DNA from: Escherichia phage glasur
Strand: one strand, 5' to 3'
Sequence record: MN850583.1
DNA length: 42,507 nucleotides
Part shown: in pieces, positions 1-42,507 of the stretch
Layout: every line of letters starts with the position of its first letter
Numbering within the stretch: position 1 is the stretch's first letter
Made by a program: the position numbers and the translations under genes
Notes under the pieces: generated by a model
Database searches by the model: none
What the model saw: the letters and a program-made list of their open reading frames with translations, nothing else
What the model was told of the DNA's origin: nothing

Positions 1-23
1 TATCACTATAGTCACTTTCATAA
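1..23 (-). promoter_or_regulatory. Inverted exact copy of the 23-nt phage-promoter-like element (TTATGAAAGTGACTATAGTGATA on the minus strand), ending exactly at the window boundary
   Basis: Reverse complement of 1-23 is identical over 23 nt to 20845-20867. It matches the T7 promoter core ACTATAG in the same register. Orientation points out of the window. Confidence 0.45.
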
Positions 24-29
24 TTATCT

Positions 30-128
30 AATGATTACAGTAACTTATAACCTATCTGATAACGGTATCTATCTTATGCAATAACCTATTCAATCAAATA
101 TTTATTCTCAATGATTACAGTAACTTAT
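30..128. repeat. Two copies of a 19-nt direct repeat AATGATTACAGTAACTTAT (30-48 and 110-128) in the AT-rich left terminal region
   Basis: Read directly from the sequence; the copies are 80 bp apart and lie upstream of the early promoters. Confidence 0.7.
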
Positions 129-160
129 CCACTATTTGAGCTATTCAGTGAAAATAATTC

Positions 161-190
161 TTGCAAGTCTGATTAGCTTTATGCTGTAAT
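161..190 (+). promoter_or_regulatory. Host sigma70-type early promoter (TTGCAA-N18-TGTAAT with TGn extended -10)
   Basis: -35 TTGCAA at 161-166, -10 TGTAAT at 185-190 preceded by TGc. First of four similarly built promoters, analogous to the T7 A1-A3 arrangement. Confidence 0.5.
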
Positions 191-263
191 TCATCTCGCC
201 GGGTAGCAGAACATCGCTACACGGTGGCAAGACGGTAACACTGCTCTTTAACAATCTGGTGTG

Positions 264-292
264 TTGACAAGGCAAGCTCACTATGCTGTAAT
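264..292 (+). promoter_or_regulatory. Host sigma70-type early promoter (TTGACA-N17-TGTAAT, extended -10)
   Basis: Consensus -35 TTGACA at 264-269, 17-nt spacer, TGcTGTAAT with -10 at 287-292. Confidence 0.65.
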
Positions 293-400
293 GCTTCCAG
301 TCAGCCAGACAAGCCAAACAGTCATGGATAAAGACGTTAAAACCCTCGCAGGCTAACTGGTACGGTTTAATCATCTCAGAACGGGCGCTGATTAAAACGG

Positions 401-429
401 TTGACAGGATGAAACGAGTATGCTGTAAT
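401..429 (+). promoter_or_regulatory. Host sigma70-type early promoter (TTGACA-N17-TGTAAT, extended -10)
   Basis: TTGACA at 401-406, 17-nt spacer, TGcTGTAAT with -10 at 424-429. Confidence 0.65.
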
Positions 430-479
430 GCACACCAGATTGACAGGCAGCAAGCCAGTCAGTCAGAAGTAAAAAGTAG

Positions 480-508
480 TTGACACGCTGAATACGATGT
501 GATGTAAT
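480..508 (+). promoter_or_regulatory. Host sigma70-type early promoter (TTGACA-N17-TGTAAT)
   Basis: TTGACA at 480-485, 17-nt spacer, TGaTGTAAT with -10 at 503-508. Confidence 0.65.
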
Positions 509-986
509 CAGCACCGAGTTGAAAGGTTGCAAAACAACCTGCTCTGAGTGAACGTAAACAGGCCACGTAGTGTCTCGGCCTCATGGGTATCCGGCGCAGC
601 TAGGAACTGGTGAGGGCATCGCTGAAAAGCAACGGTATCGCAACATTGCTAACGCCGTAGGGGTAGCGCCCGATGCAAGGGAACGGAGAAGCGCGATAGA
701 CGCAGCGCAGTATCAGCACAATCCCAAACGTCTTATAAGGCGCGGAGTATAGCGGGTAGGTAGTCAAACGGCTTGTTAGCTGGCAACGGTGAGCAAGATA
801 CGCGACGGACTGCTGGAAGACTCCTGAGAGTGGATGCAGACAATATCCATGGCGCGAAATGGGCGGGGCGATTTTTCAGGGTAGTGAATCCGACAAGCCA
901 ATCAATGCCACTGAGTGCAGACTGTACGGCGCGTCACAATGGGTTCACTATCCACCTGAAAATAGCCAACAACTGGAGAAATAACT

Positions 987-1379
987 ATGTACCGTATCTA
1001 TGCAAGCGCATACCGCCAGAACAATGCTGAGTGTGTTAATCTGGCGCTTCATTGCAAGGCACTGCGAACGGTGCAGGATATGTTCGGAGTGATTCCGGTC
1101 ACACTGACAGGCAAGTTCGACAATGCGTATGAGTTAAGCATGGTCTTCCCTGTCGATGGAATCTACGAAATCAGACAGGCTGTTAAGCTGTTCTGTAAAG
1201 CCTTTGAACAGGACTGCATCATGGTAGTGACCGACGACAATGATGCAATCTTCATGGATTCACCATATCCGGGCAAGCCTGCTGGCAAGTTTGTCAGCAA
1301 GACAGAAGCGGAGATGGAGGCCGGGCAGTTCACTGCTTGGACTTACGATGGTGAGCAATTTTGGGTAGTGGAGGCGTAA
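987..1379 (+). CDS. Early protein of unknown function (130 aa)
   Basis: ORF track 987..1379. ATG preceded by GGAG about 8 nt upstream. First gene after the roughly 470-nt leader. Confidence 0.7.
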   Translation: MYRIYASAYRQNNAECVNLALHCKALRTVQDMFGVIPVTLTGKFDNAYELSMVFPVDGIYEIRQAVKLFCKAFEQDCIMVVTDDNDAIFMDSPYPGKPAGKFVSKTEAEMEAGQFTAWTYDGEQFWVVEA

Positions 1380-1380
1380 T

Positions 1381-1452
1381 ATGTTCACTGCACTCTGTGT
1401 GATAGCGGCGGCGTGCTGGCTGATTGACCAGCGCCTGTCTAAGCGAGCCTGA
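1381..1452 (+). CDS. Possible small hydrophobic peptide (23 aa, MFTALCVIAAACWLIDQRLSKRA)
   Basis: Below the ORF-track size cutoff. ATG sits 1 nt after the upstream stop with GGAGG 7 nt upstream; the peptide is hydrophobic. Confidence 0.35.
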   Translation: MFTALCVIAAACWLIDQRLSKRA

Positions 1453-1453
1453 T

Positions 1454-1537
1454 ATGTGGGACTTACTGGTAGCGTTGTTCTGGTTCGTCTTTGCAGGCTT
1501 GTGGATTTACTGGTTGACTCGTCCCAAATTATGGTGA
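1454..1537 (+). CDS. Possible small membrane peptide (27 aa, MWDLLVALFWFVFAGLWIYWLTRPKLW)
   Basis: ATG 1 nt after the previous stop; one predicted transmembrane helix; only a weak ribosome-binding site. Confidence 0.3.
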   Translation: MWDLLVALFWFVFAGLWIYWLTRPKLW

Positions 1538-1543
1538 CTGCCT

Positions 1544-1565
1544 AATGCGTCTTGCGAGGCGCATT
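1544..1565 (+). promoter_or_regulatory. Intergenic RNA hairpin with TCTTGCGAGG loop (candidate RNase III or processing site)
   Basis: Stem AATGCG/CGCATT around loop TCTTGCGAGG. Same loop family as the hairpins near 2143, 2498, 2906, 5328, 5632 and 25635. Confidence 0.4.
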
Positions 1566-1601
1566 GTGAAGTAACCAACCAACAACCCGACGAGGTGTAT
1601 C

Positions 1602-2129
1602 ATGACTACTGTTAAATATACTGCATTCAAAGATGCTGCGGCGCTGGACAAAGCTATCGAAGCGACTGTCAAAAAGGCGCACTCACTCCGTAACGATATT
1701 CAGAACGTTGCGGTCGGTATTATCCTGCACGCTTACCATCACGGCGACTACACTCGTGCTGAGTCGTTCACTCACCAACTGGGTGATGGCGTCCGTGGTA
1801 AGGCGCTGGTTGACTGGTTCGTCCAGTTCGGCGGCCTGATTGTGGGTGAGCATGAAGATGGCAAATCCGGCTTCGTTGGCTGGAAGGGTGCCGACTTCAT
1901 CAAAGAGAACATCGACAAGGCGAAAGCCACGATGTGGTGGACTTGCAAGCCAGAAGCGGCCTTTGATGGCTTCGACCTGCAAGATGCGCTCGAAAAGCTG
2001 ATTGCCAAAGCTGAAAAGGCAATGAACAAGGCGAACGAGCTGCGCCACGAAGGGCGCGATGAGGATGCGAACAAGGTTGTCGTGCCTCAGAACGTGCTGG
2101 ACGGCCTGCGCAAGCTGAAAGCTGCGTAA
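1602..2129 (+). CDS. Early protein of unknown function (175 aa)
   Basis: ORF track. GAGGTG about 7 nt upstream of the ATG. Confidence 0.75.
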   Translation: MTTVKYTAFKDAAALDKAIEATVKKAHSLRNDIQNVAVGIILHAYHHGDYTRAESFTHQLGDGVRGKALVDWFVQFGGLIVGEHEDGKSGFVGWKGADFIKENIDKAKATMWWTCKPEAAFDGFDLQDALEKLIAKAEKAMNKANELRHEGRDEDANKVVVPQNVLDGLRKLKAA

Positions 2130-2142
2130 GCGGGATTGACTC

Positions 2143-2179
2143 AAGCCATCTTGCGAGGTGGCTTTATGGCAATTCTGCC
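2143..2179 (+). promoter_or_regulatory. Leader element: hairpin (loop TCTTGCGAGG) followed by GGCAATTCTGCC (copy 1 of 4)
   Basis: Stem AAGCCA/TGGCTT, then GGCA-N4-TGCC at 2168-2179. The same two-part element precedes the genes at 2561, 2965 and 3584. Confidence 0.5.
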
Positions 2180-2202
2180 CCAACAATTACGGAGTATCAT
2201 CC

Positions 2203-2487
2203 ATGACCACTAAAACTGTTCTGGCCTACGTCACCAAGAAAGGCGAAGAAGTGTACGGCTATGCTGTGTCTATCGACGGCGGCCAAAACTACCTGCATCA
2301 CGTTCGTGAAGAAGGTGAACCGACCGACCATGATGGCATTCTGGAAACGCTGAAAGGCATTCCGCTGCCGCACGAAATCATCTGTATGCTGGCTGGCCAG
2401 ACGGAAGATGACCTGCAACTGCGTCACGGCGATGACCTGACCATTCAGGGTATCGGCAGCTTCGAAGCTGACGTAGACGACGAATAA
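2203..2487 (+). CDS. Small acidic protein (94 aa), member 1 of the tandem acidic array (C-terminal SFEAD motif)
   Basis: Internal ATG of track ORF 2158..2487 chosen because GGAG lies 8 nt upstream. Acidic composition; ends GIGSFEADVDDE. Confidence 0.65.
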   Translation: MTTKTVLAYVTKKGEEVYGYAVSIDGGQNYLHHVREEGEPTDHDGILETLKGIPLPHEIICMLAGQTEDDLQLRHGDDLTIQGIGSFEADVDDE

Positions 2488-2497
2488 GCGTTGTCCT

Positions 2498-2535
2498 GCT
2501 GCATCCTTGCGAGGGTGCAGCGTGGCAATACTGCC
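2498..2535 (+). promoter_or_regulatory. Leader element: hairpin (loop TCCTTGCGAGGG) followed by GGCAATACTGCC (copy 2 of 4)
   Basis: Stem GCTGCA/TGCAGC, then GGCAATACTGCC at 2524-2535. Confidence 0.5.
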
Positions 2536-2560
2536 TTATTCCAATCTGAGGATTAATCCT

Positions 2561-2899
2561 ATGTCTACACTGAAACTGGTACTGATTTCTAACATCGCTG
2601 CTGACGCTTTCGACGCTGATGACGTGGCAGAACTGCAACCGCAGACCTTCGTTGGCTTCCAGCGTGATGGCGAACCGGGCGCACTGGTTGTTGGCCCGAC
2701 TGGTGGTGACGGCGCGGAAGAAGTGAAAGCGCACTTCCACGAGGGCAACCTGCCGCCTGCACTGCCGCTGCAACTGGTTGCCATGTTCGAAGGTCTGGCA
2801 TTCGTCAGCCCGGACAACCTGAAAGAAGCGACCATCGAAGTCATCGCTGAGTACGAGCAGGACGGCGACGACGATGATGACGTGGACTTCTCTGCGTGA
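2561..2899 (+). CDS. Small acidic protein (112 aa), member 2 of the tandem acidic array (poly-Asp C-terminus)
   Basis: ATG at 2561 with TGAGGA upstream, inside track ORF 2507..2899. Ends ...EQDGDDDDDVDFSA. Confidence 0.65.
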   Translation: MSTLKLVLISNIAADAFDADDVAELQPQTFVGFQRDGEPGALVVGPTGGDGAEEVKAHFHEGNLPPALPLQLVAMFEGLAFVSPDNLKEATIEVIAEYEQDGDDDDDVDFSA

Positions 2900-2905
2900 T
2901 ACCTT

Positions 2906-2943
2906 ACTGCCTCGTTGCGACGGGGCAGTGCGGCAATCATGCC
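2906..2943 (+). promoter_or_regulatory. Leader element: hairpin (loop TCGTTGCGACGG) followed by GGCAATCATGCC (copy 3 of 4)
   Basis: Stem ACTGCC/GGCAGT, then GGCAATCATGCC at 2932-2943. Confidence 0.5.
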
Positions 2944-2964
2944 CAACCTAACTGGAGATTTACC

Positions 2965-3246
2965 ATGGCTACAATCAACGTGTATTCCCTGAGCAACGGC
3001 GGTCTGGCATTCATCGCTGGTGATAAGGTAGACGAAGCGCCGTCGCTGGGCGTGACGCCGAAACCGGAAGCCAGCCGTGATGATGTTATCGCGGAAGTCA
3101 AGGGTGCGCTGGAAGACCTCGGCGGTCTGCTGTTCGTCCTGAATGGTGGCAAGCTGTCGGTTGAAAAGCTGGACGCGCTGGAACCTGTCTTTGTTGAGAG
3201 CTTCGAAGCTGACAACATCGACCTCGCTGCTTTCGCTGACGCCTAA
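2965..3246 (+). CDS. Small acidic protein (93 aa), member 3 of the tandem acidic array; clear paralogue of the gene at 3584
   Basis: ATG at 2965 with GGAG upstream. N-terminus MATINVYSL..., central LGGLLFVLNGG and C-terminal SFEAD match the 3584 product. Confidence 0.7.
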   Translation: MATINVYSLSNGGLAFIAGDKVDEAPSLGVTPKPEASRDDVIAEVKGALEDLGGLLFVLNGGKLSVEKLDALEPVFVESFEADNIDLAAFADA

Positions 3247-3284
3247 GCATAACCCGAAACCCACAACCAAAGAGGACAATCAAC

Positions 3285-3515
3285 ATGGCTAAGTTTGAAC
3301 TGGTACGCTTCATTGACCCGAACGATGGCGAAGAAACCTTCGCGCAGTTTGCTGATGACCGCTCGCTGGTCGCCATCTACAACACTGAGCGCACGGCGCG
3401 GCGCTGGTTCAAGGAAGATGAAGACATGGACAGCATCGAAGAAGCGCTGGCTATGCCGGGCTACGCTGAGGCTGTCGAGGCAGCACTGAAAGGCGAAGTC
3501 GTAGCGACTGCGTGA
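3285..3515 (+). CDS. Small acidic protein of unknown function (76 aa)
   Basis: ORF track. AGAGGA ribosome-binding site upstream of the ATG. Confidence 0.7.
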   Translation: MAKFELVRFIDPNDGEETFAQFADDRSLVAIYNTERTARRWFKEDEDMDSIEEALAMPGYAEAVEAALKGEVVATA

Positions 3516-3522
3516 TTTCTGT

Positions 3523-3561
3523 CAGCCCATCCATAGCGGTGGGCTGTAGGGCAATCATGCC
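3523..3561 (+). promoter_or_regulatory. Leader element: hairpin (7-bp stem CAGCCCA/TGGGCTG) followed by GGCAATCATGCC (copy 4 of 4)
   Basis: Hairpin at 3523-3546, then GGCAATCATGCC at 3550-3561. Confidence 0.5.
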
Positions 3562-3583
3562 ACAACAACTGAGGGTATACACC

Positions 3584-3892
3584 ATGGCAACTATCAACGT
3601 TTTCAAAACTATCACTGGCTCACTGGTATTCGTAGTGGGTGAACTGCGTGAAGATGCACCAATCGTTGGCGTGTCTCTGCGTGAAGGGGCAACCGAGGCT
3701 GACGCCATCGCTGAGATTCGTCAGAACATTGAGAACCTCGGCGGCCTGTTCTTCCTGCTGCAAGGTGGCAGCCTGAACCTCGCTAAGTTGCAGGAGCATG
3801 AGCCTGTGCTCGTGACCAGCTTCGAAGCGGAAGACGTAGACGCCAGTGACTTCGAAGCCAGCCGCGCTGACGAAGAAGAAGCAGGCGAGTAA
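3584..3892 (+). CDS. Small acidic protein (102 aa), member 4 of the tandem acidic array; paralogue of the gene at 2965
   Basis: ATG at 3584 with GAGGG upstream. MATINVFKT..., LGGLFFLLQGG, SFEAEDVDASDFEAS and an acidic tail. Confidence 0.7.
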   Translation: MATINVFKTITGSLVFVVGELREDAPIVGVSLREGATEADAIAEIRQNIENLGGLFFLLQGGSLNLAKLQEHEPVLVTSFEAEDVDASDFEASRADEEEAGE

Positions 3893-4001
3893 TGAGCGCC
3901 ATCGAGGTGGCACTGATGTTGGGCTGTCATGCAGGTATTGGCAGCCTCGTCATCTACATCGTTGGCGCGGCACGCAAATCATACGATAGGAGAACCAAGC
4001 T

Positions 4002-4178
4002 ATGAAACTTGCAGTATCGCGCAGCGGTGCAAGCCATGCGGCACACAAGTTGCACTTCCTGTTCCACTCGCTGTACCTTACAGCGGCTGCGATGGAGGGT
4101 CACTTGTTCTACAGCCTCATGGCTGGCGGCACCTTACTGTTCATGGTTGGCACGGCGGTGCTGGGCAATGAACATTAA
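4002..4178 (+). CDS. Possible small membrane protein (58 aa)
   Basis: ATG with strong AGGAGA 8 nt upstream and a hydrophobic C-terminal half. Alternative overlapping frames (3892..4005, 3929..4171, 4201..4341) cannot be excluded. Confidence 0.35.
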   Translation: MKLAVSRSGASHAAHKLHFLFHSLYLTAAAMEGHLFYSLMAGGTLLFMVGTAVLGNEH

Positions 4179-4405
4179 TCTGTTACAACGGGTCAAGGGT
4201 ATGGAGCGTCGGCACTGGGAGACGGCCATCATCCTTAAGGTAAGCATAAGCGCTGGACTTGCTGCTGCTTATTTCCTGCCAACCACCGCAGCAATAGCCG
4301 TTGGTATCAGCACCAACCTGCTATGGTTGTGGAAGTTGTAAGCAGTGGATTACTCAAGGCTGTCCAGCGGGTAACCTTTTTGAAATCCATTGACGAGAGG
4401 GGAGC

Positions 4406-4744
4406 ATGGCACTACATCGAGTGAAGGTAATGCGTGGGCCTGACTTCGAAGACGGACAAGAGATTGCTGCATTGCAGTACCGCTTGCCGTCAGGTCAGGA
4501 GGGGCTGGTCATCATCGACCAGATTGAAATCATGGGTGAGCACATGCTGATTGCTGATGCCACCGATGAGCAAATCATTGAGCGCTGCAAGGCATACGCC
4601 GGGGGCAGACCGTTCATCATCGACCTGATGAATGACCAGCACATCAATGCTGATGGTTCGCTGCTGTTCAAGGCGTGGCTTCATGCTCTCACAACAATCT
4701 ACGAAGGGGAGATGTATCTCTTTGGAGTAGGCACCGAGGGTTAA
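4406..4744 (+). CDS. Early protein of unknown function (112 aa)
   Basis: ORF track. Strong GAGAGGGGAG ribosome-binding site. Confidence 0.75.
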   Translation: MALHRVKVMRGPDFEDGQEIAALQYRLPSGQEGLVIIDQIEIMGEHMLIADATDEQIIERCKAYAGGRPFIIDLMNDQHINADGSLLFKAWLHALTTIYEGEMYLFGVGTEG

Positions 4745-4746
4745 TC

Positions 4747-5061
4747 ATGAAAGTAAGCAAAGGATATCTGTTCGTGCTGTTGATGCTGGCTACCCTGTAT
4801 CTCAGCACATGCCACATCGCACTGGCTGCTGATGTGGAGAAGGTGCATTTGGATGCGTATGACGTACCGCTGGGCGCACCTGATGGACAGGTGTACTCTG
4901 CTTGCGTCATTGACCTACGCAAAGGTGGCACTGTCAGCACACTGGCCTACGTTGGTGAGTGTGAGGATGTGCTGCCACACCTGAAAGAAAAGCTGGAGCA
5001 TGATGGCGTGACCACCATCGTGACTCTCTCAATCAACGGTCATAACATCAACCTAACGTGA
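4747..5061 (+). CDS. Predicted secreted small protein (104 aa) with N-terminal signal peptide
   Basis: ATG at 4747 with GAGGG upstream. N-terminus MKVSKGYLFVLLMLATLYLSTCHIALA-ADV has a hydrophobic core and an A-x-A cleavage site. Confidence 0.6.
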   Translation: MKVSKGYLFVLLMLATLYLSTCHIALAADVEKVHLDAYDVPLGAPDGQVYSACVIDLRKGGTVSTLAYVGECEDVLPHLKEKLEHDGVTTIVTLSINGHNINLT

Positions 5062-5069
5062 GGTTTTAA

Positions 5070-5321
5070 ATGAGCACTCAAGCTAAGATTGTAATTCTGC
5101 GCAACGACTATGGCCGTCCTACTCCGTTCGGCACCTTCTGTCCGTTCCTCGATACCATTGAGGGTAAAGAGTACGATGTACTCATCCTCGAACCGGGTGA
5201 GGTGGACGCCGAAGGGGATGAAGTTGACAAGCGCTCGGTCAGTTTCCGCGATGAAGTGGGTGACTTAGCTGGCGCACACATTGACTACCATGAAGGTAAG
5301 TCATTCAAGTTCGTCGAGTAA
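5070..5321 (+). CDS. Early protein of unknown function (83 aa), acidic
   Basis: ORF track. GAGG about 10 nt upstream. Confidence 0.65.
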   Translation: MSTQAKIVILRNDYGRPTPFGTFCPFLDTIEGKEYDVLILEPGEVDAEGDEVDKRSVSFRDEVGDLAGAHIDYHEGKSFKFVE

Positions 5322-5327
5322 TAATCT

Positions 5328-5351
5328 ACAGCCTCTGCTTGCGGGGGCTGT
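5328..5351 (+). promoter_or_regulatory. Intergenic RNA hairpin (stem ACAGCC/GGCTGT, loop TCTGCTTGCGGG)
   Basis: Lies directly after a stop codon and upstream of the next ribosome-binding site; same loop family as the other early hairpins. Confidence 0.4.
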
Positions 5352-5379
5352 GTCACTAACAAATAAACGAGAGGCAAAC

Positions 5380-5625
5380 ATGGCTAAGTATGACGTATAC
5401 AAAGACGGCGAAGGTGACTGGACTATCGTACCGGAAGGGCAGAAGATTGCAGCCCCGGTCGATGTGATTGCAATGAACGGCGCGGCGGCTGAGACACTGG
5501 CTGATGTGCAGCGCATCGCAACCACCAAGCGTGCAGGCTTCGAAGCTAACCGCACGCATGTCAAGTCGCAGGCTGTCATCAATCGCTTCGGCCCGTATGA
5601 ACTGGCCGGGACTATCGAAGTGTGA
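5380..5625 (+). CDS. Early protein of unknown function (81 aa)
   Basis: ATG at 5380 with GAGAGG upstream, inside track ORF 5281..5625. Confidence 0.65.
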   Translation: MAKYDVYKDGEGDWTIVPEGQKIAAPVDVIAMNGAAAETLADVQRIATTKRAGFEANRTHVKSQAVINRFGPYELAGTIEV

Positions 5626-5631
5626 TAAGCT

Positions 5632-5656
5632 ACTGCCCCTGCGTGCCGGGGGCAGT
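5632..5656 (+). promoter_or_regulatory. Intergenic RNA hairpin (8-bp stem ACTGCCCC/GGGGCAGT, loop TGCGTGCCG)
   Basis: Read directly from the sequence; sits between two genes. Confidence 0.4.
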
Positions 5657-5684
5657 GTCATTATCAAACGATGGAGGTAACATC

Positions 5685-5969
5685 ATGGTGCTGGCATCTG
5701 AATCAATCATTGAGCACGCTGCTGATATCCGGGCGGCGGTTGAAAAGCGCGGGGTCGCAGCTACCCGTGGTCATCTCTCTGGCAACGGTGGCCTGCGTGG
5801 TCACAGCGTAGGCGGTGTGTTCCCCTGCGTTATCTTTGCTCGTGGCAATCCTAATGTGAAGCTCGACTGGTGCTTCCTCACACCAGCGGGTGATGAGTTC
5901 GATGGCTTCATTAGTTATGAGGATGCGTATGCAGCCGCGCAAGAATGGCTGGAGAAAAGAGAGGTGTAA
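5685..5969 (+). CDS. Early protein of unknown function (94 aa)
   Basis: ATG at 5685 with GGAGG upstream, inside track ORF 5622..5969. Confidence 0.65.
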   Translation: MVLASESIIEHAADIRAAVEKRGVAATRGHLSGNGGLRGHSVGGVFPCVIFARGNPNVKLDWCFLTPAGDEFDGFISYEDAYAAAQEWLEKREV

Positions 5970-5970
5970 C

Positions 5971-6264
5971 ATGAGCAGAAGTGCTAAGTGGGATGCGCTG
6001 GTACAGTGGGTGAAGGATAGCTTTGGGCCACCGCCTACCCCTGACCACGATGACTCGCCGTTCCAATACGTCGAGAAGAAAACGCAGGAGCTTAAGCTGG
6101 GCGACTACGTTGTAGCATACGGTGGATACATCCAGCGCATCGGTGCCGTTGAGTATGATGGCAGCCGACTGGTTGTAACCAAGCTGGGGCATAGCCCTGA
6201 ACGTGAATGGCAGGCGTTTGAAGACGACGAGTTCACAATCCGCACACTGAAAGAAGGAAAGTAA
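5971..6264 (+). CDS. Early protein of unknown function (97 aa)
   Basis: ATG at 5971 with GAGAGG upstream, inside track ORF 5890..6264. Confidence 0.65.
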   Translation: MSRSAKWDALVQWVKDSFGPPPTPDHDDSPFQYVEKKTQELKLGDYVVAYGGYIQRIGAVEYDGSRLVVTKLGHSPEREWQAFEDDEFTIRTLKEGK

Positions 6265-6266
6265 TC

Positions 6267-6782
6267 ATGGCTATTGACTTTAAATTATTCAACGCCGAGC
6301 AACTTGAAACTGTCAAGTCTCTGGCTGAGTTCATCGACAACCACCCGGAGCTGAGCGAACTGGTTGAGTTCAAGGGTGGCTACCTGCCGAAGCAAAGTTA
6401 CATCGGCGCGGTGCGTAAAGGTCGTGAAGGTATGCTGGATATTATTCCGCAGACCAGAACCGGGGCGCTGCTGGCACGCAACGTCAGCGTGCTGATTGGC
6501 ATGAACGTGAAGCGTGCCAGTGAGCAGGGCAATGCGGCTGAGGTTGAGACGCTGCGCCTGACGGGTACGCTCGCAGCTAAGGCCATGTCGGAACCGGACA
6601 TTGCCGAGCGCTATCACGACTGGTACATGGCGTGCGCTAATGTGCCAAGCGATATCAGTGAGACGACGCTGGGCCTGCTGTTCGTCGGTGAGTTCATCGA
6701 CGCAACCATCCGTGCAGTCAGCGGTCAGGTGGGTGAATTAATTCAGGCAATGCAGCAGGCCAAGAATGCAACCCGTCACTAA
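6267..6782 (+). CDS. Protein of unknown function (171 aa), last gene of the early module
   Basis: ORF track. AGGAA ribosome-binding site. Confidence 0.75.
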   Translation: MAIDFKLFNAEQLETVKSLAEFIDNHPELSELVEFKGGYLPKQSYIGAVRKGREGMLDIIPQTRTGALLARNVSVLIGMNVKRASEQGNAAEVETLRLTGTLAAKAMSEPDIAERYHDWYMACANVPSDISETTLGLLFVGEFIDATIRAVSGQVGELIQAMQQAKNATRH

Positions 6783-6800
6783 GCTCACCGTAACCAAATC

Positions 6801-6824
6801 ACCCACCGGATTATTCTGGTGGGT
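6801..6824 (+). terminator. Hairpin at the early/middle module boundary (stem ACCCACC/GGTGGGT); possible terminator or processing site
   Basis: 7-bp stem with 10-nt loop just after the stop of the 6267 gene and upstream of the promoter-like element at 6971. There is no U-run, so this is not a canonical intrinsic terminator. Confidence 0.3.
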
Positions 6825-6970
6825 AGTTGATAAGCTGCAACCAAATAAACCTTTGGCTGTGCGTGATACAAAGTGGGAAGCCGAGAGTAAACTCGAAGAC
6901 CTTCAACGTATTATGCGGAATGTTATTCCAGCTTAGCCATCTACTCATGCCAGTTATTATTTAGCTGGCA

Positions 6971-6993
6971 TTATGAAGGTGACTATATTGGAC
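6971..6993 (+). promoter_or_regulatory. Phage-promoter-like element, variant copy (TTATGAAgGTGACTATAtTGgAc)
   Basis: 19/23 identical to the 20845-20867 element and contains GTGACTATA. Placed directly upstream of the first gene of the replication module. Confidence 0.5.
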
Positions 6994-7007
6994 AACCCGG
7001 AGGAAAT

Positions 7008-7208
7008 ATGTTTCGTGTATTAATGTTATTCGCACTTGTCGTTATATTGTGGGGCGCGTTATGGGTAGGTGTTGCCTATTTCATTCAGCCCTACATTGGC
7101 GAACAGCTTACCTCTGTAATTGGTACGCTGCTGGGCTTTGTTGTTGGCGCAGTTGGTATGACCAAGTGCATTGACATTGGCTGGAGTAAGGGGTGGGTGA
7201 AATGGTAA
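7008..7208 (+). CDS. Small membrane protein (66 aa, two predicted transmembrane helices)
   Basis: ORF track. GGAGG ribosome-binding site. Hydrophobic segments LMLFALVVILWGALWVGVAYFI and VIGTLLGFVVGAVGM. Confidence 0.65.
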   Translation: MFRVLMLFALVVILWGALWVGVAYFIQPYIGEQLTSVIGTLLGFVVGAVGMTKCIDIGWSKGWVKW

Positions 7209-7642
7209 AGCCAAAGTACAAAGTCGGTGATGAAATCGTGGGCGACGATGGCACTGGCACCCGGTCGGGTAAGCTGGGTATCATCGCATGGGTTAACCCT
7301 GACCGCCGAGCGTGGGAGCGCAGCGGGGAGACTCGTTACATCGTGAGCTGGATTGGTGAGCGCCTCAATGCGCAGCCGGATATCAGCCACTACAAATCTG
7401 ATTGGCTGGAGGACAACACCAGTCTGGTCAGCACGCCAGCAGAGAAGCGCGGTCGGTTCATGTGTCTGCTTGAGGGTGGCAGCACGCCGCCGAAGATTGA
7501 GCACATCACTGAACGTGAAGCGCGTGATGAAGCTGAGCGTCTGGCTGAGCGCCACGGTGGTACTGTCCGTGTGCTGCAAGTTGTAGCCAGCGTGAAGATG
7601 AAGAAGAAGATTCAGTACATACCGGACTGGGATAACGAATGA
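7202..7642 (+). CDS. Protein of unknown function (about 147 aa)
   Basis: Track ORF 7193..7642; the ATG at 7202 is preferred over the GTG at 7193. Confidence 0.65.
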   Translation: MVKPKYKVGDEIVGDDGTGTRSGKLGIIAWVNPDRRAWERSGETRYIVSWIGERLNAQPDISHYKSDWLEDNTSLVSTPAEKRGRFMCLLEGGSTPPKIEHITEREARDEAERLAERHGGTVRVLQVVASVKMKKKIQYIPDWDNE

Positions 7643-8349
7643 TGAAATCAGTGAGCAACGACGAGTGGCCGGAGCTGGCGAAGCGTCTGCCTGTAGGACA
7701 AAAGCGAAGGACGTTTCACAGTTGCTCGCGGTCATTCAACAAGACCAACTTCGAGTATGGCCGTGCGCCGGATTACATCTGGTGCAAGTGCCACCGCTGT
7801 GGGTACAGCCAGAAGCGTGACCTGACTCACGCTGTGTATGTGCCGCCAGCCGAGGTGCAGGTGAAGGTGCCGACTGATGTGGTGCCTATCACTGAGGTGA
7901 TTGCCAAGCAACCACGGCTGCTGCTGCCAGTGCTGGAGCGGGAGAACCTGATGCCACACCTGTCACTCCTGACTGCAAGCCCAACGTATGGCAGGCTGTA
8001 TCTGCCGGACGACACGGGCAGCTACTGTGGTCTGGACTACACGGGCAGGCAGTTCATCCCGTGGCGCTCGCCGCATAAGCATAGCTTGGCGATGAAGGTC
8101 AGTCCTCGTGGTGACGCGGAGACTAACTGCCTCTGGATTTATGGTGAGGTGGATGAGTATCTCCAGCAGGTGCGCGATGGTGGCAACTGTGCATTCGTTC
8201 CGAACGTGGATGATGCAACGTTGCAGGCTCTGGTCAGTGTGACGCTGGCGTATGGGTACAACCTCGTGGTCATCTGCCACCACCCAAGCGCCCAACGTAT
8301 CCGCAGGGAGCTGCGTATTGTGGGGCGTGTGCAAATCGTAGGAGAGTGA
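7639..8349 (+). CDS. Putative DNA primase (Cys-rich N-terminal zinc-binding region)
   Basis: Cysteine cluster HSCSRS...CKCHRC near the N-terminus and position immediately upstream of the helicase gene, as in phiKMV-like phages with separate primase and helicase. Assignment is mainly by position. Confidence 0.45.
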   Translation: MMKSVSNDEWPELAKRLPVGQKRRTFHSCSRSFNKTNFEYGRAPDYIWCKCHRCGYSQKRDLTHAVYVPPAEVQVKVPTDVVPITEVIAKQPRLLLPVLERENLMPHLSLLTASPTYGRLYLPDDTGSYCGLDYTGRQFIPWRSPHKHSLAMKVSPRGDAETNCLWIYGEVDEYLQQVRDGGNCAFVPNVDDATLQALVSVTLAYGYNLVVICHHPSAQRIRRELRIVGRVQIVGE

Positions 8350-8350
8350 T

Positions 8351-9616
8351 GTGCTTGACAAGCTGTTGTTAACGGTGATGCGCGAGCGCGGGAAGTTCAA
8401 CTCCCTGCGACACGCCATCCCGGAAGATACGATGAGCCAGACCACGAGCTATATGCTCAAGGCTTACGGCTCATACTTTGATGCGTTCCCGGACAGTGAC
8501 TACATTGACATTGACACGCTGGGTACACACGTTCGTTTAAAGACAGGCAGCACGCCTGAACAGATGGCAGCCTTTGATTCGTTGTGCTCGCAGCTTCGAG
8601 AGTACAAGCCAACGAAGGAACAGAAGGAAGGTGTGCTTGACCAGCTCGTCGAGTTGGATACCGCTGGCCGTGCTAACCTGCTAATGCAGAGGTACGACAA
8701 TGGTGAGGAACTGGATATTATCTATGAGCTGGGCCGTCTTGCTGAGGGCGCACGTCGCAGCCGGGGGCAGTCATCTGTCACTGATTACGTGGACGATGAT
8801 GTGGTTGATATTCTCAACCGGACGGATGATAATCACGGCCTCAAGTTCGGTCTGCTCTGCTTGCAAGACAGCGTTCGCGTACTTCTACCCGGCGACTCCG
8901 TTGCCATCGGTGCTCGACCTGACAGCGGAAAGACTTCCTTCATCGCGTTTAACCTTACGCGAATGGCGGCGACAGCAGCGAAGCTCTATCCGGGCAGGCC
9001 AATCCTCTGGTTCAACAACGAGGGGCAGGGCATCAACATCATCCCGCGCATCTACCAAGCGGCGCTCAACTGCACGCTCCCGGAACTGAAAGAGCTGGGA
9101 GAGGACAGGGCTAAGCTGCACGCTGCGTATGCCAAAGCGCTGGGTGCGCCAGCCAACATCATCCGTGTGAAGGATATGCACGGCGCGTCGCTGGCGAAAG
9201 CTGAGCAGGTTATCGAAGCGATGAACCCATGCGTTGTGGTGTGGGATATGTTGGCGAACTTCAAGCTGTCTGTCTCCGATGCCAACAGCAACAAGGCGTC
9301 GCAGGTTGAGCAGCTATGGCAGGAGGTACGTGAGCTGGCCGTGCGCCACGACTTCGTATCAATGGCCACGGTGCAGGTATCAGCCGATGGCAAGGATGAT
9401 ATGTTCCCTGCGCTGGATGCACTCAAGGATTCCAAGACTGGTATCCAAGGTGCGACTGATGTTATCGTCATGCTCGGCAGCGTGGATGACCCATCGCTGG
9501 CAGCGCGGCGCGGCGTCAGCACTCCGAAGAACAAACGCCAGATTGCTGGGCGTCCATCCAACGTGCGGTCGCAGGTTCACTTCTTTGCTGACCGCTGCCA
9601 ATTTGAGGATATGTAA
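8351..9616 (+). CDS. DnaB-like replicative DNA helicase (T7 gp4 helicase-domain type)
   Basis: Walker A GARPDSGKTSF and Walker-B-like VVVWDM; 421 aa. GTG start with GGAGAG upstream. Confidence 0.75.
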   Translation: MLDKLLLTVMRERGKFNSLRHAIPEDTMSQTTSYMLKAYGSYFDAFPDSDYIDIDTLGTHVRLKTGSTPEQMAAFDSLCSQLREYKPTKEQKEGVLDQLVELDTAGRANLLMQRYDNGEELDIIYELGRLAEGARRSRGQSSVTDYVDDDVVDILNRTDDNHGLKFGLLCLQDSVRVLLPGDSVAIGARPDSGKTSFIAFNLTRMAATAAKLYPGRPILWFNNEGQGINIIPRIYQAALNCTLPELKELGEDRAKLHAAYAKALGAPANIIRVKDMHGASLAKAEQVIEAMNPCVVVWDMLANFKLSVSDANSNKASQVEQLWQEVRELAVRHDFVSMATVQVSADGKDDMFPALDALKDSKTGIQGATDVIVMLGSVDDPSLAARRGVSTPKNKRQIAGRPSNVRSQVHFFADRCQFEDM

Positions 9617-9960
9617 TGAGCGTGATTAAGGTAGGCGACCGAGTTCGTAACTGTGACACCAAGAGCATACACCATGGCGCGACTGGTACTGTGGTTGATA
9701 TCGACAGCAAGTGTATCAGCATCAAGCGTGATGATGGCTCTCGCGGTTCCGGTATCTATGGCTCGTGGACTGCACGGCCTGAGTGCTGGGAGCTGCTGGT
9801 TGAGGTGCCGGAGCCGACGACCACCGATGAGGACTGGAGCTACGCTGAGGCTGAGCGTCTGTATCAGGCAGCGTGTGATGCCATGGCCAAGTACAATCAG
9901 TACGTTGAGCGTAAGCCTACGACCAGCTACCTGCCCGGCAGCAAGCCGAGTAAGTGGTGA
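9616..9960 (+). CDS. Protein of unknown function (114 aa), possible KOW/SH3-like N-terminus
   Basis: ORF track. N-terminal KVGDRVR...GATGTVVDID pattern. Confidence 0.6.
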   Translation: MSVIKVGDRVRNCDTKSIHHGATGTVVDIDSKCISIKRDDGSRGSGIYGSWTARPECWELLVEVPEPTTTDEDWSYAEAERLYQAACDAMAKYNQYVERKPTTSYLPGSKPSKW

Positions 9961-10124
9961 AGGGGCGCAGCTATCGCCGTTGCTCTTGCGGTGGGTGCCT
10001 GCTGGTTGAGCAGGTCAAGGGCAAAGCCACTGGCAAACCGCTGGTGATTTATGAATGTGAGAAGTGTGGAGCGAAGCAGTATGGAAGACAAGGTGTATCG
10101 AGCAGCACCCTTAACCCAGCGTGA
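9957..10124 (+). CDS. Possible zinc-ribbon mini-protein (about 55 aa; CSCGGC ... CEKC)
   Basis: GTG-initiated ORF below the track cutoff with two CxxC-type pairs. Overlaps the next ORF in another frame, so it is uncertain. Confidence 0.3.
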   Translation: MKGRSYRRCSCGGCLLVEQVKGKATGKPLVIYECEKCGAKQYGRQGVSSSTLNPA

Positions 10125-10272
10125 ACAAGACACCATCCGGGCGCAGTACCGGAAGGGTGATGCGTTCCGTGGTGAGGAAGCATTGGGTGAGCGTTACAAC
10201 GTGGCACCCGAAGATATCGTGGCTGTGGTTAACTTCACCTATCGTAAGGGGAAACAGAAGCATGATAAGTAA
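10081..10272 (+). CDS. Small protein of unknown function (63 aa)
   Basis: Internal ATG of track ORF 10051..10272 with GGAG about 10 nt upstream. Confidence 0.45.
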   Translation: MEDKVYRAAPLTQREQDTIRAQYRKGDAFRGEEALGERYNVAPEDIVAVVNFTYRKGKQKHDK

Positions 10273-10945
10273 TGCCGAAGCTAAGCGCGTGTGGGCAGAA
10301 GATATCTGCCGTCTGCTGCAATCCGAAGAACTGAACTTCGTGGTTGCCGGGGGAGGGGCAAGGGATACCGCGCTGGGTGTTGAGCCGAAGGACTACGACA
10401 TTGTAGTCTTTGGTTGGGGTGGTGATGTGAGCCGTGTGGCTGGCCGACTGGACTGGCTGGACTCCAGACTGGAGGACTACGCCAAGCAGAACGAGCTGGC
10501 GTATGAGTACATGCCGAGCTATCACGATGCAGCAGAGGGTGGCGACTTCGGCTCCCGTCTGTGGGGTGTGTATAAGATTGGCCCGGTCGATGTGATTATC
10601 AGTAAGTGCGGGTGCTGGTCGCAGGTACTGAACGAGTTCGACTTCAACCTGAACCAGTTCTACTTCCCGTCCAGCATCCCGCGTTACTCCGGCCAGTACA
10701 GCCGCGACCCCGGCGAGTTCATGGCGTACCCGTATGAGCCGAACCTGACTGCCGAAGATGTGCAGTGGTTCCCGGCGCTGGCCAGTCTGGTAGAAAGCTA
10801 CGATGACCTGCTGACTCTCCGTGTCTGCCGACCGGATGCCAGCCTGAGTCGTGTGGCCTACATGCTGGAGAAGCACGAGAAGTATCTGCCAGCCATTGAA
10901 GCATACGTTAATCGTATGCCCGACCACTTAGGTGGCAAAGCATAG
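10262..10945 (+). CDS. Nucleotidyltransferase with Pol-beta-type head domain of the CCA-adding/poly(A) polymerase class (227 aa)
   Basis: Motif FVVAGGGARDTALGVEPKDYDIVVFG matches the GGxxRDxxLGxxxxDxD signature of class II tRNA nucleotidyltransferases. ATG at 10262 with AAGGGGA upstream, inside track ORF 10121..10945. Confidence 0.6.
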   Translation: MISNAEAKRVWAEDICRLLQSEELNFVVAGGGARDTALGVEPKDYDIVVFGWGGDVSRVAGRLDWLDSRLEDYAKQNELAYEYMPSYHDAAEGGDFGSRLWGVYKIGPVDVIISKCGCWSQVLNEFDFNLNQFYFPSSIPRYSGQYSRDPGEFMAYPYEPNLTAEDVQWFPALASLVESYDDLLTLRVCRPDASLSRVAYMLEKHEKYLPAIEAYVNRMPDHLGGKA

Positions 10946-10955
10946 CGGGGGATTG

Positions 10956-24631: not shown

Positions 24632-25624
24632 ATGGCCGACAACTACTATCAGCCGAATCAGTTCCGTCCACACTGGGGTGGTGCGAACTCTGATAACGAC
24701 ATTCACCTTGAGGTGTATGACCGTGATGTGCAGACCCAGTTCATCTACAACTCCATCTTCCGCAGCGGCCTGACCAACTTCAAGTCTGTTGCGAACCAGT
24801 CCAACACTTGGCGTGGCGACCGTCTCGGCTCCGTGTCTGTGAAGGGCCGTAAGTCTGGTCAGTCTCTGGACAACCAGCCTGTTCGCTCTGAGAAGCTGAT
24901 TGTCACTGTGGATACCGTGTCTTACATCCGTATCCCGATTGACTATCAGGACGACTGGACTGCGCCGGACTTCCGTGCTGAGCTGACCCGTAACATGGGT
25001 ACTGCACAGGCGAAAGCGTTCGACCAAGCGCACGTCATCCAGCTCCAGAAGTCTGCTGACTTCGTTCCTCCGACCTCTCTGGCAGGCGCGTTCAACTCCG
25101 GTATCAAGGAGAAAGTAACGCTGACTGGCACCGTGGCTTCTGAGGAAGACGATGCAAGCGCACTGGTGCATGGTCACAAGAAAGTCATTGAGGCGTTCAT
25201 TCGCCGCGATGCCGACCTTGGCCGTCTGGTAACGCTGATTGACCCGGCGTGGTTCAGCATCCTGCTGGAGCACAAGAAACTGATGAACGTTGAGTTCACT
25301 GGTGGTCGTGGTGTGAACGACTTCGCTATGCGTCGTGTTGCTTACGTGAACGGTATCCGTATCATCGAGAGCAACGCATTCCCGCAGGCAGCAATCACCA
25401 ACCACATCCTCGGTGCCGACTTCAACGTCACCGCCGAAGAAATCAAGCGTAAGATGATTATCTTCGACCCGTCTCTGGCTCTGGTCACTGTCGAAGCCCA
25501 ACCGCTGTTCAACCGCGTGTGGGATGACGAACGTGAACTGACCAACGTTCTGGACAGCTTCCACATGTACACCGTGGGTCAGCGTCGTCCTGACGTGGTA
25601 GGCGTGGTTACTACCGAAGCCTAA
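24632..25624 (+). CDS. Major capsid protein (T7 gp10-like)
   Basis: 330 aa, strong ribosome-binding site, canonical position, and followed by a hairpin as in T7-like phages. Confidence 0.85.
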   Translation: MADNYYQPNQFRPHWGGANSDNDIHLEVYDRDVQTQFIYNSIFRSGLTNFKSVANQSNTWRGDRLGSVSVKGRKSGQSLDNQPVRSEKLIVTVDTVSYIRIPIDYQDDWTAPDFRAELTRNMGTAQAKAFDQAHVIQLQKSADFVPPTSLAGAFNSGIKEKVTLTGTVASEEDDASALVHGHKKVIEAFIRRDADLGRLVTLIDPAWFSILLEHKKLMNVEFTGGRGVNDFAMRRVAYVNGIRIIESNAFPQAAITNHILGADFNVTAEEIKRKMIIFDPSLALVTVEAQPLFNRVWDDERELTNVLDSFHMYTVGQRRPDVVGVVTTEA

Positions 25625-25634
25625 TGGCAAACTC

Positions 25635-25658
25635 GAAGCCCTTCTCACGAGGGGCTTC
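25635..25658 (+). terminator. Hairpin downstream of the major capsid gene (stem GAAGCCC/GGGCTTC, loop TTCTCACGAG); putative late terminator or processing site
   Basis: 7-bp GC-rich stem directly after the capsid stop codon, the position of T-phi in T7. Downstream CTATGATTG is only weakly U-rich. Confidence 0.45.
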
Positions 25659-25680
25659 TATGATTGTCACTGGAGGTTTT

Positions 25681-41999: not shown

Positions 42000-42507
42000 T
42001 CGACCCAAATGACCGCGCGTACCCCCATGACGTGTGCGCGGATTAGCCTCGCGACGTGCGCGATATTGCTCGCGTGCGCTGCGCGGCGCGTCAAGAGGAT
42101 TGCCTGCGTGCGGTATAGCTCGTGCGTGTCGCGTTTCATCGTCTGCCGTGTGGCGTGCTGTGCGCTGTCCTGCTGGCTGTGCTGTGCGGTGCTGTCCTAT
42201 GGGGACGCTCTGCGCTGGCTGTGCTGTGCTGTGTGCTGCGCTCGGTCGTGCGGGTATCTGTCTCTTTTCGTCGTGCGCCGTGGTGCTGTGTGGTGGTGTG
42301 GTGTAGCGGTGGTGCTGCCGTGGTGCTGTCCTGTCTGCTGGTCTACTGTCTGCGCCGCCAGCTCTGCGCGTCATGCTCTGCTACTGTGTCACCTGTCCTA
42401 CTGCGTTCACTGGCTGCCGCCTGTCATCCTGTCGGATTCCATCCGTTGCCGTTCCGCGCTCGCTTGTTTCGGCTGCGCCGCGCTCGCTCTGCGTATCTAG
42501 CGATACA
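42000..42507. repeat. GC-rich, strongly strand-skewed (A-depleted) right terminal region with short degenerate GTGCTGT/GCTGTCC repeats
   Basis: About 6 A residues in roughly 230 nt (42130-42360) on the + strand. Recurring GGCTGTGCTGTGC and GTGCTGTCC units. Only Cys/Arg-rich ORFs with no ribosome-binding site. Confidence 0.6.
42255..42270 (+). promoter_or_regulatory. Candidate T7-RNAP class II pause/termination (concatemer-junction-like) motif TATCTGTCTCTTTTCG
   Basis: Resembles the T7 class II signal ATCTGTT followed by a U-rich tract, with one mismatch. In T7 this signal lies in the terminal repeat. Confidence 0.35.

Follow-up and report, generated by a model that had tools for sequence, protein, structure and literature searches.

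Intergenic hairpins of Escherichia phage glasur as probable RNase III processing signals of the T7 type

Introduction

The substrates of Escherichia coli ribonuclease III (RNase III) typically comprise two helical turns, for which coaxially stacked short helices suffice, and internal loops limit the enzyme to the cleavage of one phosphodiester, the resulting 3' hairpin protecting against 3'-5' exonucleases (PMC1540722). In phage T7, the early precursor of approximately 7,000 nt is cut during transcription at five such sites, which gives rise to mono- and dicistronic mRNAs (PMC4858673). While such RNase III sites are textbook knowledge for T7, we describe here a family of intergenic hairpins in Escherichia phage glasur (sequence record MN850583.1) that are probably unannotated examples of the same signal. 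The complete stretch of 42,507 bp, with a G+C content of 55.4%, was analysed and is referred to as the window.

None of the inspected records, including those of forsur, usur, ROV85, RZ4, J8-65, LIMEzero, KP34 and PhiM1, carries an annotation of these elements. A literature search revealed no description of RNase III sites in bonnellvirus, phiKMV-like or KP34-like phages, and the bonnellvirus descriptions examined mention neither RNase III nor hairpins.

Results

An earlier note on this DNA had listed seven stem-loops in the early region and one behind the capsid gene. All of them were recovered by an independent stem scan, namely at 1543-1566 (-11.1 kcal/mol), 2143-2164 (-10.9 kcal/mol), 2497-2522 (-17.5 kcal/mol), 2905-2930 (-16.4 kcal/mol), 3523-3546 (-14.9 kcal/mol), 5327-5352 (-16.2 kcal/mol) and 5631-5657 (-18.7 kcal/mol), and after the capsid gene at 25635-25658 (-16.3 kcal/mol), each on the + strand. 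Their placement after a stop codon and ahead of the following Shine-Dalgarno sequence and start codon, as proposed there, was borne out by the sequence and by the annotation of forsur. Together with two sites added in this work, ten elements were obtained, all of them on the coding strand between a stop codon and the following ribosome-binding site. Ten early gaps measure 35 nt or more; nine of them hold such an element, and in the tenth, 3247-3284, no significant structure was found. Among the 23 strongest hairpins of the window, six are located in the inner intergenic sequence, which accounts for 4.1% of the total (binomial P=3e-4). This test was based on a deliberately crude, ATG-only gene call and is conservative, since the call wrongly covers the gaps holding the hairpins at 5327 and 25635.

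Folding of the gaps with their flanks showed that the hairpins listed earlier are only the upper stems of larger structures, beneath which a lower stem of 7-9 bp is found. The general layout comprises the lower stem, a small internal loop or bulge and an upper stem of 9-11 bp with a stable loop on top. In the minimum free energy folds, nine of the ten elements form a composite helix of 17-25 predicted pairs, and the total of approximately 20 bp corresponds to about two turns of coaxially stacked double helix. In most cases, the upstream stop codon lies within the lower stem's 5' strand or directly next to it (GCG-UGA-U, G-UGA-UAA-G, GAA-UAA-G). A T7-like internal loop (5' ACUC / 3' UAUGA) is present at the sites 2130, 4343, 6934 and 25622, and a smaller or different one elsewhere. 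The earlier note contained neither the sites 4343-4396 and 6934-6989 nor the lower stems or an invariant 12-nt box, GGCAAUNNUGCC.

For the comparison with T7, we used ten cleavage coordinates that we take to be those of Dunn and Studier 1983. At R0.3, R0.5, R1, R1.1, R1.3, R4.7 and R18.5, these coordinates share one position in a common two-stem fold, just 3' of the upper stem. R3.8 also fell on a hairpin and stayed outside the model built from these seven sites. The correspondence extends to the sequence: T7 reads ACUCAAGGUC...GGCCUUUAU/GAUU, the site 2130 reads GACUCAAGCC...GGCUUUAU GGCAAUU, and the internal-loop sequences common to T7 and the window are ACUCAAG...CUUUAUG. Furthermore, the upper hairpin of T7 R1 (CAGGUCAUCUGCGGGUGGCCUG, loop UGCG) is identical in 21 of 22 positions to an early hairpin of J8-65 (3266-3287).

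A covariance model derived from the seven T7 sites only was run unfiltered on both strands of the window. Six matches with E values from 2e-6 to 5.8 were obtained on the + strand, all of them in gaps between genes: 4343-4396 (E=2e-6), 25622-25676 (E=1e-5), 6934-6989 (E=4e-4), 2130-2182 (E=4e-4), 3510-3564 (E=0.054, borderline) and 5620-5673 (E=5.8, weak). The only other match in the window lies on the - strand with E=8, and the elements at 1532, 2482, 2894 and 5327 were not matched. The same model also matches early intergenic sites in other bonnellviruses, two sites in LIMEzero (4e-7 and 3.5e-5) and, weakly, KP34 and PhiM1; on the first 9 kb of SP6 it gave nothing below E=0.1. A second-round model, built from the bonnellvirus matches, lifted 2894 (0.2), 1532 (5.4) and 5316 (8.5) to marginal values. 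In four other complete bonnellvirus genomes, model matches occurred only in the early region and in the gap behind the capsid gene, always on the coding strand.

The check by folding and covariance across related phages, which the earlier note had suggested, was carried out with the window and 14 relatives, with further box-type copies taken from LIMEzero, KP34 and PhiM1. The hairpins are conserved in the 15 bonnellvirus genomes, and compensatory changes were found in both helices. When 34 distinct box-type copies from 14 genomes were compared, pairing in the upper stem reached 99.7%, and 7 of its 9 pairs had changed on both sides; with the structure slid by 1-3 columns, pairing of both helices together was 34-53%. 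In an alignment of 17 distinct bonnellvirus sites, which is fitted to the T7 model, pairing amounts to 89% in the lower stem, where 7 of 8 pairs covary, and to 98% in the upper stem. A test with a fixed register of the lower stem covered 22 distinct copies of the box type, taken from Bonnellvirus, LIMEzero, KP34 and PhiM1; 16 of them showed 7 of 7 pairs and the remaining six showed 6 of 7. At the two variable positions of the box, the nucleotide changes together with its partner, giving G-C or U-A at one pair and G.U, G-C, U-A or A-U at the other. In the upper stem, 35 G.U cells and no A.C cells were counted, and the covariance-model scores were higher on the + strand than on the - strand (55 vs. 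20, 54 vs. 10, 50 vs. 12 and 48 vs. 18 bits). The G.U pairs and the lower - strand scores indicate that selection acts on the sense-strand RNA.

Regarding the individual sites, all on the + strand, four of them carry the T7-like internal loop. The site 2130..2179 consists of the lower stem GCGGGAUUG/CAAUUCUGC, the internal loop ACUC / UAU, the upper hairpin 2143-2164 and the box GGCAAUUCUGCC at 2168-2179. Its fold comprises 20 pairs and is supported by covariation, the scores being 29.2 bits (E=4e-4) with the T7-only model and E=1.5e-10 with the second-round model; based on the alignment to T7, the cut is predicted at U2167/G2168. The added site 4343..4392, located in the gap 4342-4405, reads CAGUGGAUU-ACUC-AAGGCUGUCC..GGGUAACCUU-UUUGA-AAUCCAUUG, forms 19 pairs and is the top match of the T7-only model (39.1 bits), with a predicted cut at U4381/G4382. 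The second added site, 6934..6986, reads UAGCCAUCU-ACUC-AUGCCAGUU..AGCUGGCAU-UAUGA-AGGUGACUA, likewise with 19 pairs (29.2 bits) and a putative cut at U6974/G6975; its orthologue in LIMEzero is annotated as a putative terminator. After the capsid gene, the site 25622..25672 shows the lower stem UGGCAA/UUGUCA adjoining the UAA stop, an ACUC / UAUGA internal loop and the upper hairpin 25635-25658. It scored 36.1 bits with the T7-only model and E=6e-11 with the second-round model, is kept behind the capsid gene in every bonnellvirus retrieved and would be cut at U25661/G25662.

Among the other elements, the site 1532..1577 precedes the phrog_1448 gene. Its upper hairpin, 1543-1566, is capped by a U(UGCG)A loop, and the lower stem (UGGU.ACU / AGU.ACCA) is interrupted and includes the upstream UGA stop (18 pairs, -19.5 kcal/mol). 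The match to the second-round model is marginal, and orthologous hairpins with compensatory changes were found in J8-65, Lidtsur, Kc261, KP34 and PhiM1. At 2482..2541, an outer stem (GAAUAAG/CUUAUUC, with the UAA stop), a middle stem with the box at 2524-2535 and the upper hairpin 2497-2522 add up to a helix of approximately 25 bp (25 pairs, -30.3 kcal/mol). This site was matched by neither model because its register differs; the orthologue in HHU8, LF82-23 and megetsur shows compensatory stem changes from CAUCC/GGGUG to CGCC/GGCG and another loop. The site 2894..2943 comprises the lower stem GCGUGAU/AUCAUGC with the UGA stop, the upper hairpin 2905-2930 and the box at 2932-2943 (20 pairs, -28.8 kcal/mol) and showed 7 of 7 lower pairs in the fixed-register test. 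In the site 3510..3561, the lower stem GCGUGAUU/AAUCAUGC is followed by UCU/GGG, the upper hairpin 3523-3546 and the box at 3550-3561 (20 pairs; second-round model E=4e-9), and its flanks recur with wholly different upper stems in LIMEzero, KP34 and PhiM1. The site 5620..5668 has the lower stem UGAUAAG/(C)AUUAUCA, including the UGA and UAA stops, and the upper hairpin 5631-5657 (20 pairs, -26.1 kcal/mol; second-round model E=0.009). The weakest member, 5327..5352, is an 11-bp hairpin only, as the lower stem of its relatives (UGAUAA/UUAUCA) is absent in this genome.

The loops on top of the upper stems are variable. Within the window, an identical U(UGCG)A loop is found at 1543, 2143, 2497 and 2905, so that the similarity of loops pointed out in the earlier note holds true within this genome, but not between orthologues. 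Among orthologous sites, the loops vary (UUGCGA, UGUCAAGGCG, UUCAACGA, UUCACUGA, CAUAGC), while the stems are kept: the orthologue of 2143-2164 shows the loop UGUCAAGGCG in most relatives, and that of 2497-2522 shows UUCAACGA together with compensatory stem changes. In T7, R1 has a C(UGCG)G loop, and R0.3 and R1.1 have GCAA loops.

The box GGCAAUNNUGCC starts at 2168, 2524, 2932 and 3550, and part of it constitutes the 3' strand of the lower stem in these four sites. In the window and the 14 relatives, the pattern GGCAA-NNN-TGCC gave 51 matches, of which 50 are located on the + strand in early intergenic gaps and one is likely due to chance. The box lies at a constant 21-25 nt ahead of the start codon. 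The box recurs in LIMEzero, KP34-like and PhiM1-like phages, with box-type sites at 2267-2318 in KP34, 2432-2481 in PhiM1 and 3917-3968, 4290-4344 and 4649-4698 in LIMEzero. In J8-65, Lidtsur and LIMEzero it is also found just downstream of a complete T7-like site. Across subfamilies, ten of its positions stay the same and the upper stems are exchanged completely; pairing in the lower stem accounts for the two covarying positions, but not fully for the ten invariant ones. The box itself could form a GGCA/UGCC hairpin of -3.5 to -3.7 kcal/mol. As the native fold this mini-hairpin was rejected, since it shows no covariation and the LIMEzero copy with the box GGCAAUCACGCC breaks the hairpin and improves the lower stem, and it may at most be a fold adopted after cleavage.

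The order of elements in a box-type site is GCGUGAUUUCUGU, a variable hairpin, UAGGGCAAUCAUGCC, a CA-rich stretch and the Shine-Dalgarno sequence. Near-identical flanks with unrelated upper stems occur across subfamilies of the Autographiviridae infecting Klebsiella, Pectobacterium and Pantoea. In mellemsur, a hybrid site at 4994-5045 combines a 5' half of the CAGGCCA type with a 3' half of the 3510 type and contains one G.G mismatch. This phage lacks the genes that lie between the CAGGCCA-type and the 3510-type sites in aldrigsur and HHU8, and the hybrid looks like the result of a deletion by recombination between two sites.

With respect to transcription, the earlier note had considered the hairpins unlikely to be intrinsic terminators on account of missing U-runs, and we came to the same result. 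The tails after the hairpins (UAUGGCAA, GUGGCAAU, UGUCAUUA, UAUGAUUG) contain no U-run, and scans of positions 1-12000 for terminators and sigma-70 promoters revealed nothing at the elements. A search against Rfam gave no match for the whole window at the gathering threshold or for positions 1-7100 at E<=1. The motif GAAGGTGACTATATTGGA beside the site 6934 was considered as a phage promoter and dropped, as it occurs in a single copy in the window.

The first 8 kb of the window show 97.9% identity to Escherichia phage forsur and match 18 other records, nearly all of them Bonnellvirus, Autographiviridae. The genes are oriented on the + strand throughout, and the RNA polymerase gene is located at the end of the DNA-metabolism block, which corresponds to a phiKMV-type layout. 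Three sigma-70-type promoters were read from the sequence at approximately 264-507. Since the left 7 kb lie downstream of these promoters and the RNA polymerase gene is located late, this part is presumably transcribed by the host polymerase. Between these promoters and the first gene (SAMase, 987-1379), approximately 450 nt (540-985) contain no convincing open reading frame (ORF); this leader is kept in relatives, but its structure was not significant (z=-1.3), and it gave no Rfam match. The early ORFs at 2203-5321 are nearly all small and very acidic (isoelectric points of 4.0-4.6) and have no PHROG function, and several of them end with an SFEA(D/E) motif. The ORFs 2965-3246 and 3584-3892 are paralogues with 46% identity. 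A PHROG search with ten early proteins found just two families, both of unknown function. Further features comprise a direct repeat (AATGATTACAGTAACTTAT...) near the left end at 30-59 and 110-139, which is 87% identical over 30 nt, and G+C-rich repeats of the CGTGCGCG type with hairpins near the right end (42013-42078), which were also found in forsur, aldrigsur and mellemsur. A strong hairpin at 6801-6824 (ACCCACCGG-AUUAUU-CUGGUGGGU, -17.4 kcal/mol) is located inside a coding sequence and is present in all relatives whose stretch covers the position; it gave no match to the RNase III-site covariance models.

Discussion

It is likely that the hairpins are the upper stems of T7-type host RNase III processing and stability signals in polycistronic phage mRNAs, nine or ten of them in the host-transcribed early operon and one after the capsid gene. 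This interpretation draws on the folds with their conservation and covariation, on their strand specificity and on the statistical and sequence match to the T7 sites. The analogy with T7 and RNase III, which the earlier note had proposed, is thus supported by the two-stem architecture, the helix of approximately 20 bp, the internal-loop sequences and the matches of the T7-only model, four with E<=4e-4 and a fifth with 0.05, and cleavage would follow by the same analogy. From the homology to T7 we infer RNase III cleavage, the cut positions, the distinction between single and double cuts and the effects on stability and translation.

According to the proposed mechanism, host RNase III would bind the helix of about two turns and cut the internal loop on its 3' side. 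For the four sites with the box, the alignment would place this cut immediately 5' of GGCAAU. Cleavage would separate the cistrons, leaving the upper hairpin at the 3' end of the upstream message as a barrier to 3'-5' exonucleases and providing the downstream message with a defined 5' end approximately 35 nt before the AUG. The sites with ACUC/UAUGA loops (2130, 4343, 6934, 25622) should be cut once, and a cut on each strand might occur where the helix is almost uninterrupted (2482, 2894, 3510, 5620). The box could have a role beyond that of a lower strand, as a flush 5' hairpin after cleavage, a determinant of the cleavage site or the binding site of an unknown factor, which we regard as doubtful. 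In the case of a cut at the first G of the box, the downstream mRNA would start with a flush GGCA-loop-UGCC hairpin, which could shield the new 5'-monophosphate end from 5'-end-dependent attack by RNase E.

Several observations weigh against this interpretation. The function in bonnellviruses is derived wholly from homology with T7, and the inspected GenBank records of T7 carry no annotation of RNase III sites, so that the coordinates used here were not confirmed from annotation. At two further of these coordinates, R6.5 and R13, no matching structure was found, and both were dropped from the model. Within the window, the sites 1532, 2482 and 5327 showed no significant match to either T7-derived model, and 5327 lacks the two-stem structure of approximately 20 bp in this genome. 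The second-round model re-finds six T7 sites, although this re-detection and the model itself are partly circular. Much of the covariation lies between paralogous copies and therefore represents few independent events. Furthermore, RNAalifold on a MAFFT alignment prefers the invariant GGCA/UGCC mini-hairpin over the lower stem.

The 5327 element, with its hairpin only, would fit an alternative in which the elements are structural stabilisers or insulators of the mRNA without cleavage of their own, blocking 3'-5' exonucleases after cuts by, for example, RNase E or isolating the start regions from the sequence upstream, comparable to the intercistronic C(UUCG)G hairpins of T4. Stable, tetraloop-capped hairpins in intercistronic positions would be expected in this case as well. 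However, the conserved and covarying lower stems, the total length of approximately 20 bp, the T7 internal-loop sequences and the model matches would be left unexplained, and we consider this alternative unlikely. A role as transcription signals, namely U-less terminators, pause sites or attenuators for the host or phage RNA polymerase, could be suspected from the annotation of the LIMEzero orthologue of 6934-6986 as a putative factor-independent terminator and from the terminator Tphi at the post-capsid position of T7. Against this role, there is no T-run after any element, the terminator scan was empty there, and the element behind the capsid gene scores E=1e-5 with the T7 RNase III model, while ten terminators in one early operon would be self-defeating. 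Such a function is therefore very improbable.

The proposal of the earlier note that the loop is unusual for RNase III sites and could point to a specific protein was not upheld. UGCG, which belongs to the UNCG type, and GCAA are generic stable tetraloops. Binding sites for a phage or host RNA-binding protein that reads a UUGCGA-type loop would account for the four identical U(UGCG)A loops in this genome, but orthologues keep the stem and replace the loop, and a UGCG loop also caps T7 R1. Since the stems covary freely and the loops vary, neither of them presents a fixed recognition surface, and there is hardly any room for such a protein. The same low credence, or slightly less, is given to primarily DNA-level recombination modules that flank and shuffle small early-gene cassettes, comparable to the promoter-early stem-loops of T4. 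Almost all small early genes are indeed flanked by the repeats. It is chiefly in these genes that relatives differ, the differences among bonnellviruses lying mostly in small hypothetical genes (PMC7552041), and the hybrid hairpin of mellemsur lies at a deletion junction between two sites. However, the unit contains no promoter, and the G.U pairs and strand-asymmetric scores point to selection on the sense-strand RNA. It is more probable that recombination results from the repetition as a side effect than that it is the function under selection.

If the interpretation as RNase III signals holds true, the mRNA-processing signal of T7 extends to the bonnellviruses and, by related sites, to LIMEzero-, PhiM1- and KP34-like enterobacterial phages, which have a phiKMV-type layout. 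The elements improve the boundaries for early transcripts, and the expression of early genes is predicted to depend on the host rnc gene. The repeats would also explain the exchange of early-gene cassettes at these sites. As the upper stems are very different, the sites could serve as ready-made natural RNase III insulator parts. No new mechanism is revealed by the elements, and the invariant box constitutes one small unexplained feature.

Compared to other known systems, the elements resemble the intercistronic C(UUCG)G hairpins that were reportedly found in phage T4 by Tuerk et al. 1988 in being very stable, UNCG-capped hairpins between the cistrons of phage mRNAs. While those are short, stand-alone stems, the hairpins of the window sit on a conserved lower stem and form a helix of RNase III size. 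With the promoter-early stem-loop (PeSL) cassettes of T4-type phages, said to have been described by Arbiol et al. 2010, they share the repeated intergenic stem-loops that flank small variable early genes and the recombination between copies, as in the mellemsur hybrid. In contrast to PeSL cassettes, the unit of the window has no associated promoter, and selection acts on RNA structure.

The closest correspondence is found with the RNase III signals of T7. Both are located on the sense strand between the genes of polycistronic phage mRNAs, both comprise a lower stem, an internal loop and an upper stem of approximately 20 bp in total, and both are capped by stable tetraloops including UGCG and GCAA. 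In T7 R0.5 and R1, as in the window, the 5' strand of the lower stem includes or adjoins the upstream stop codon, and the ACUC.../...UAUGA internal loop of T7 is present in four window sites. The differences concern the genome layout, which is of the phiKMV type, and the denser spacing, with about 10 sites in the early region of 6 kb. Four window sites comprise the invariant box in place of the T7 3' segment together with smaller internal loops, and cleavage could therefore occur on both strands. Finally, an RNase III-type site follows the capsid gene in the window, whereas T7 has a Tphi-type terminator at this position.

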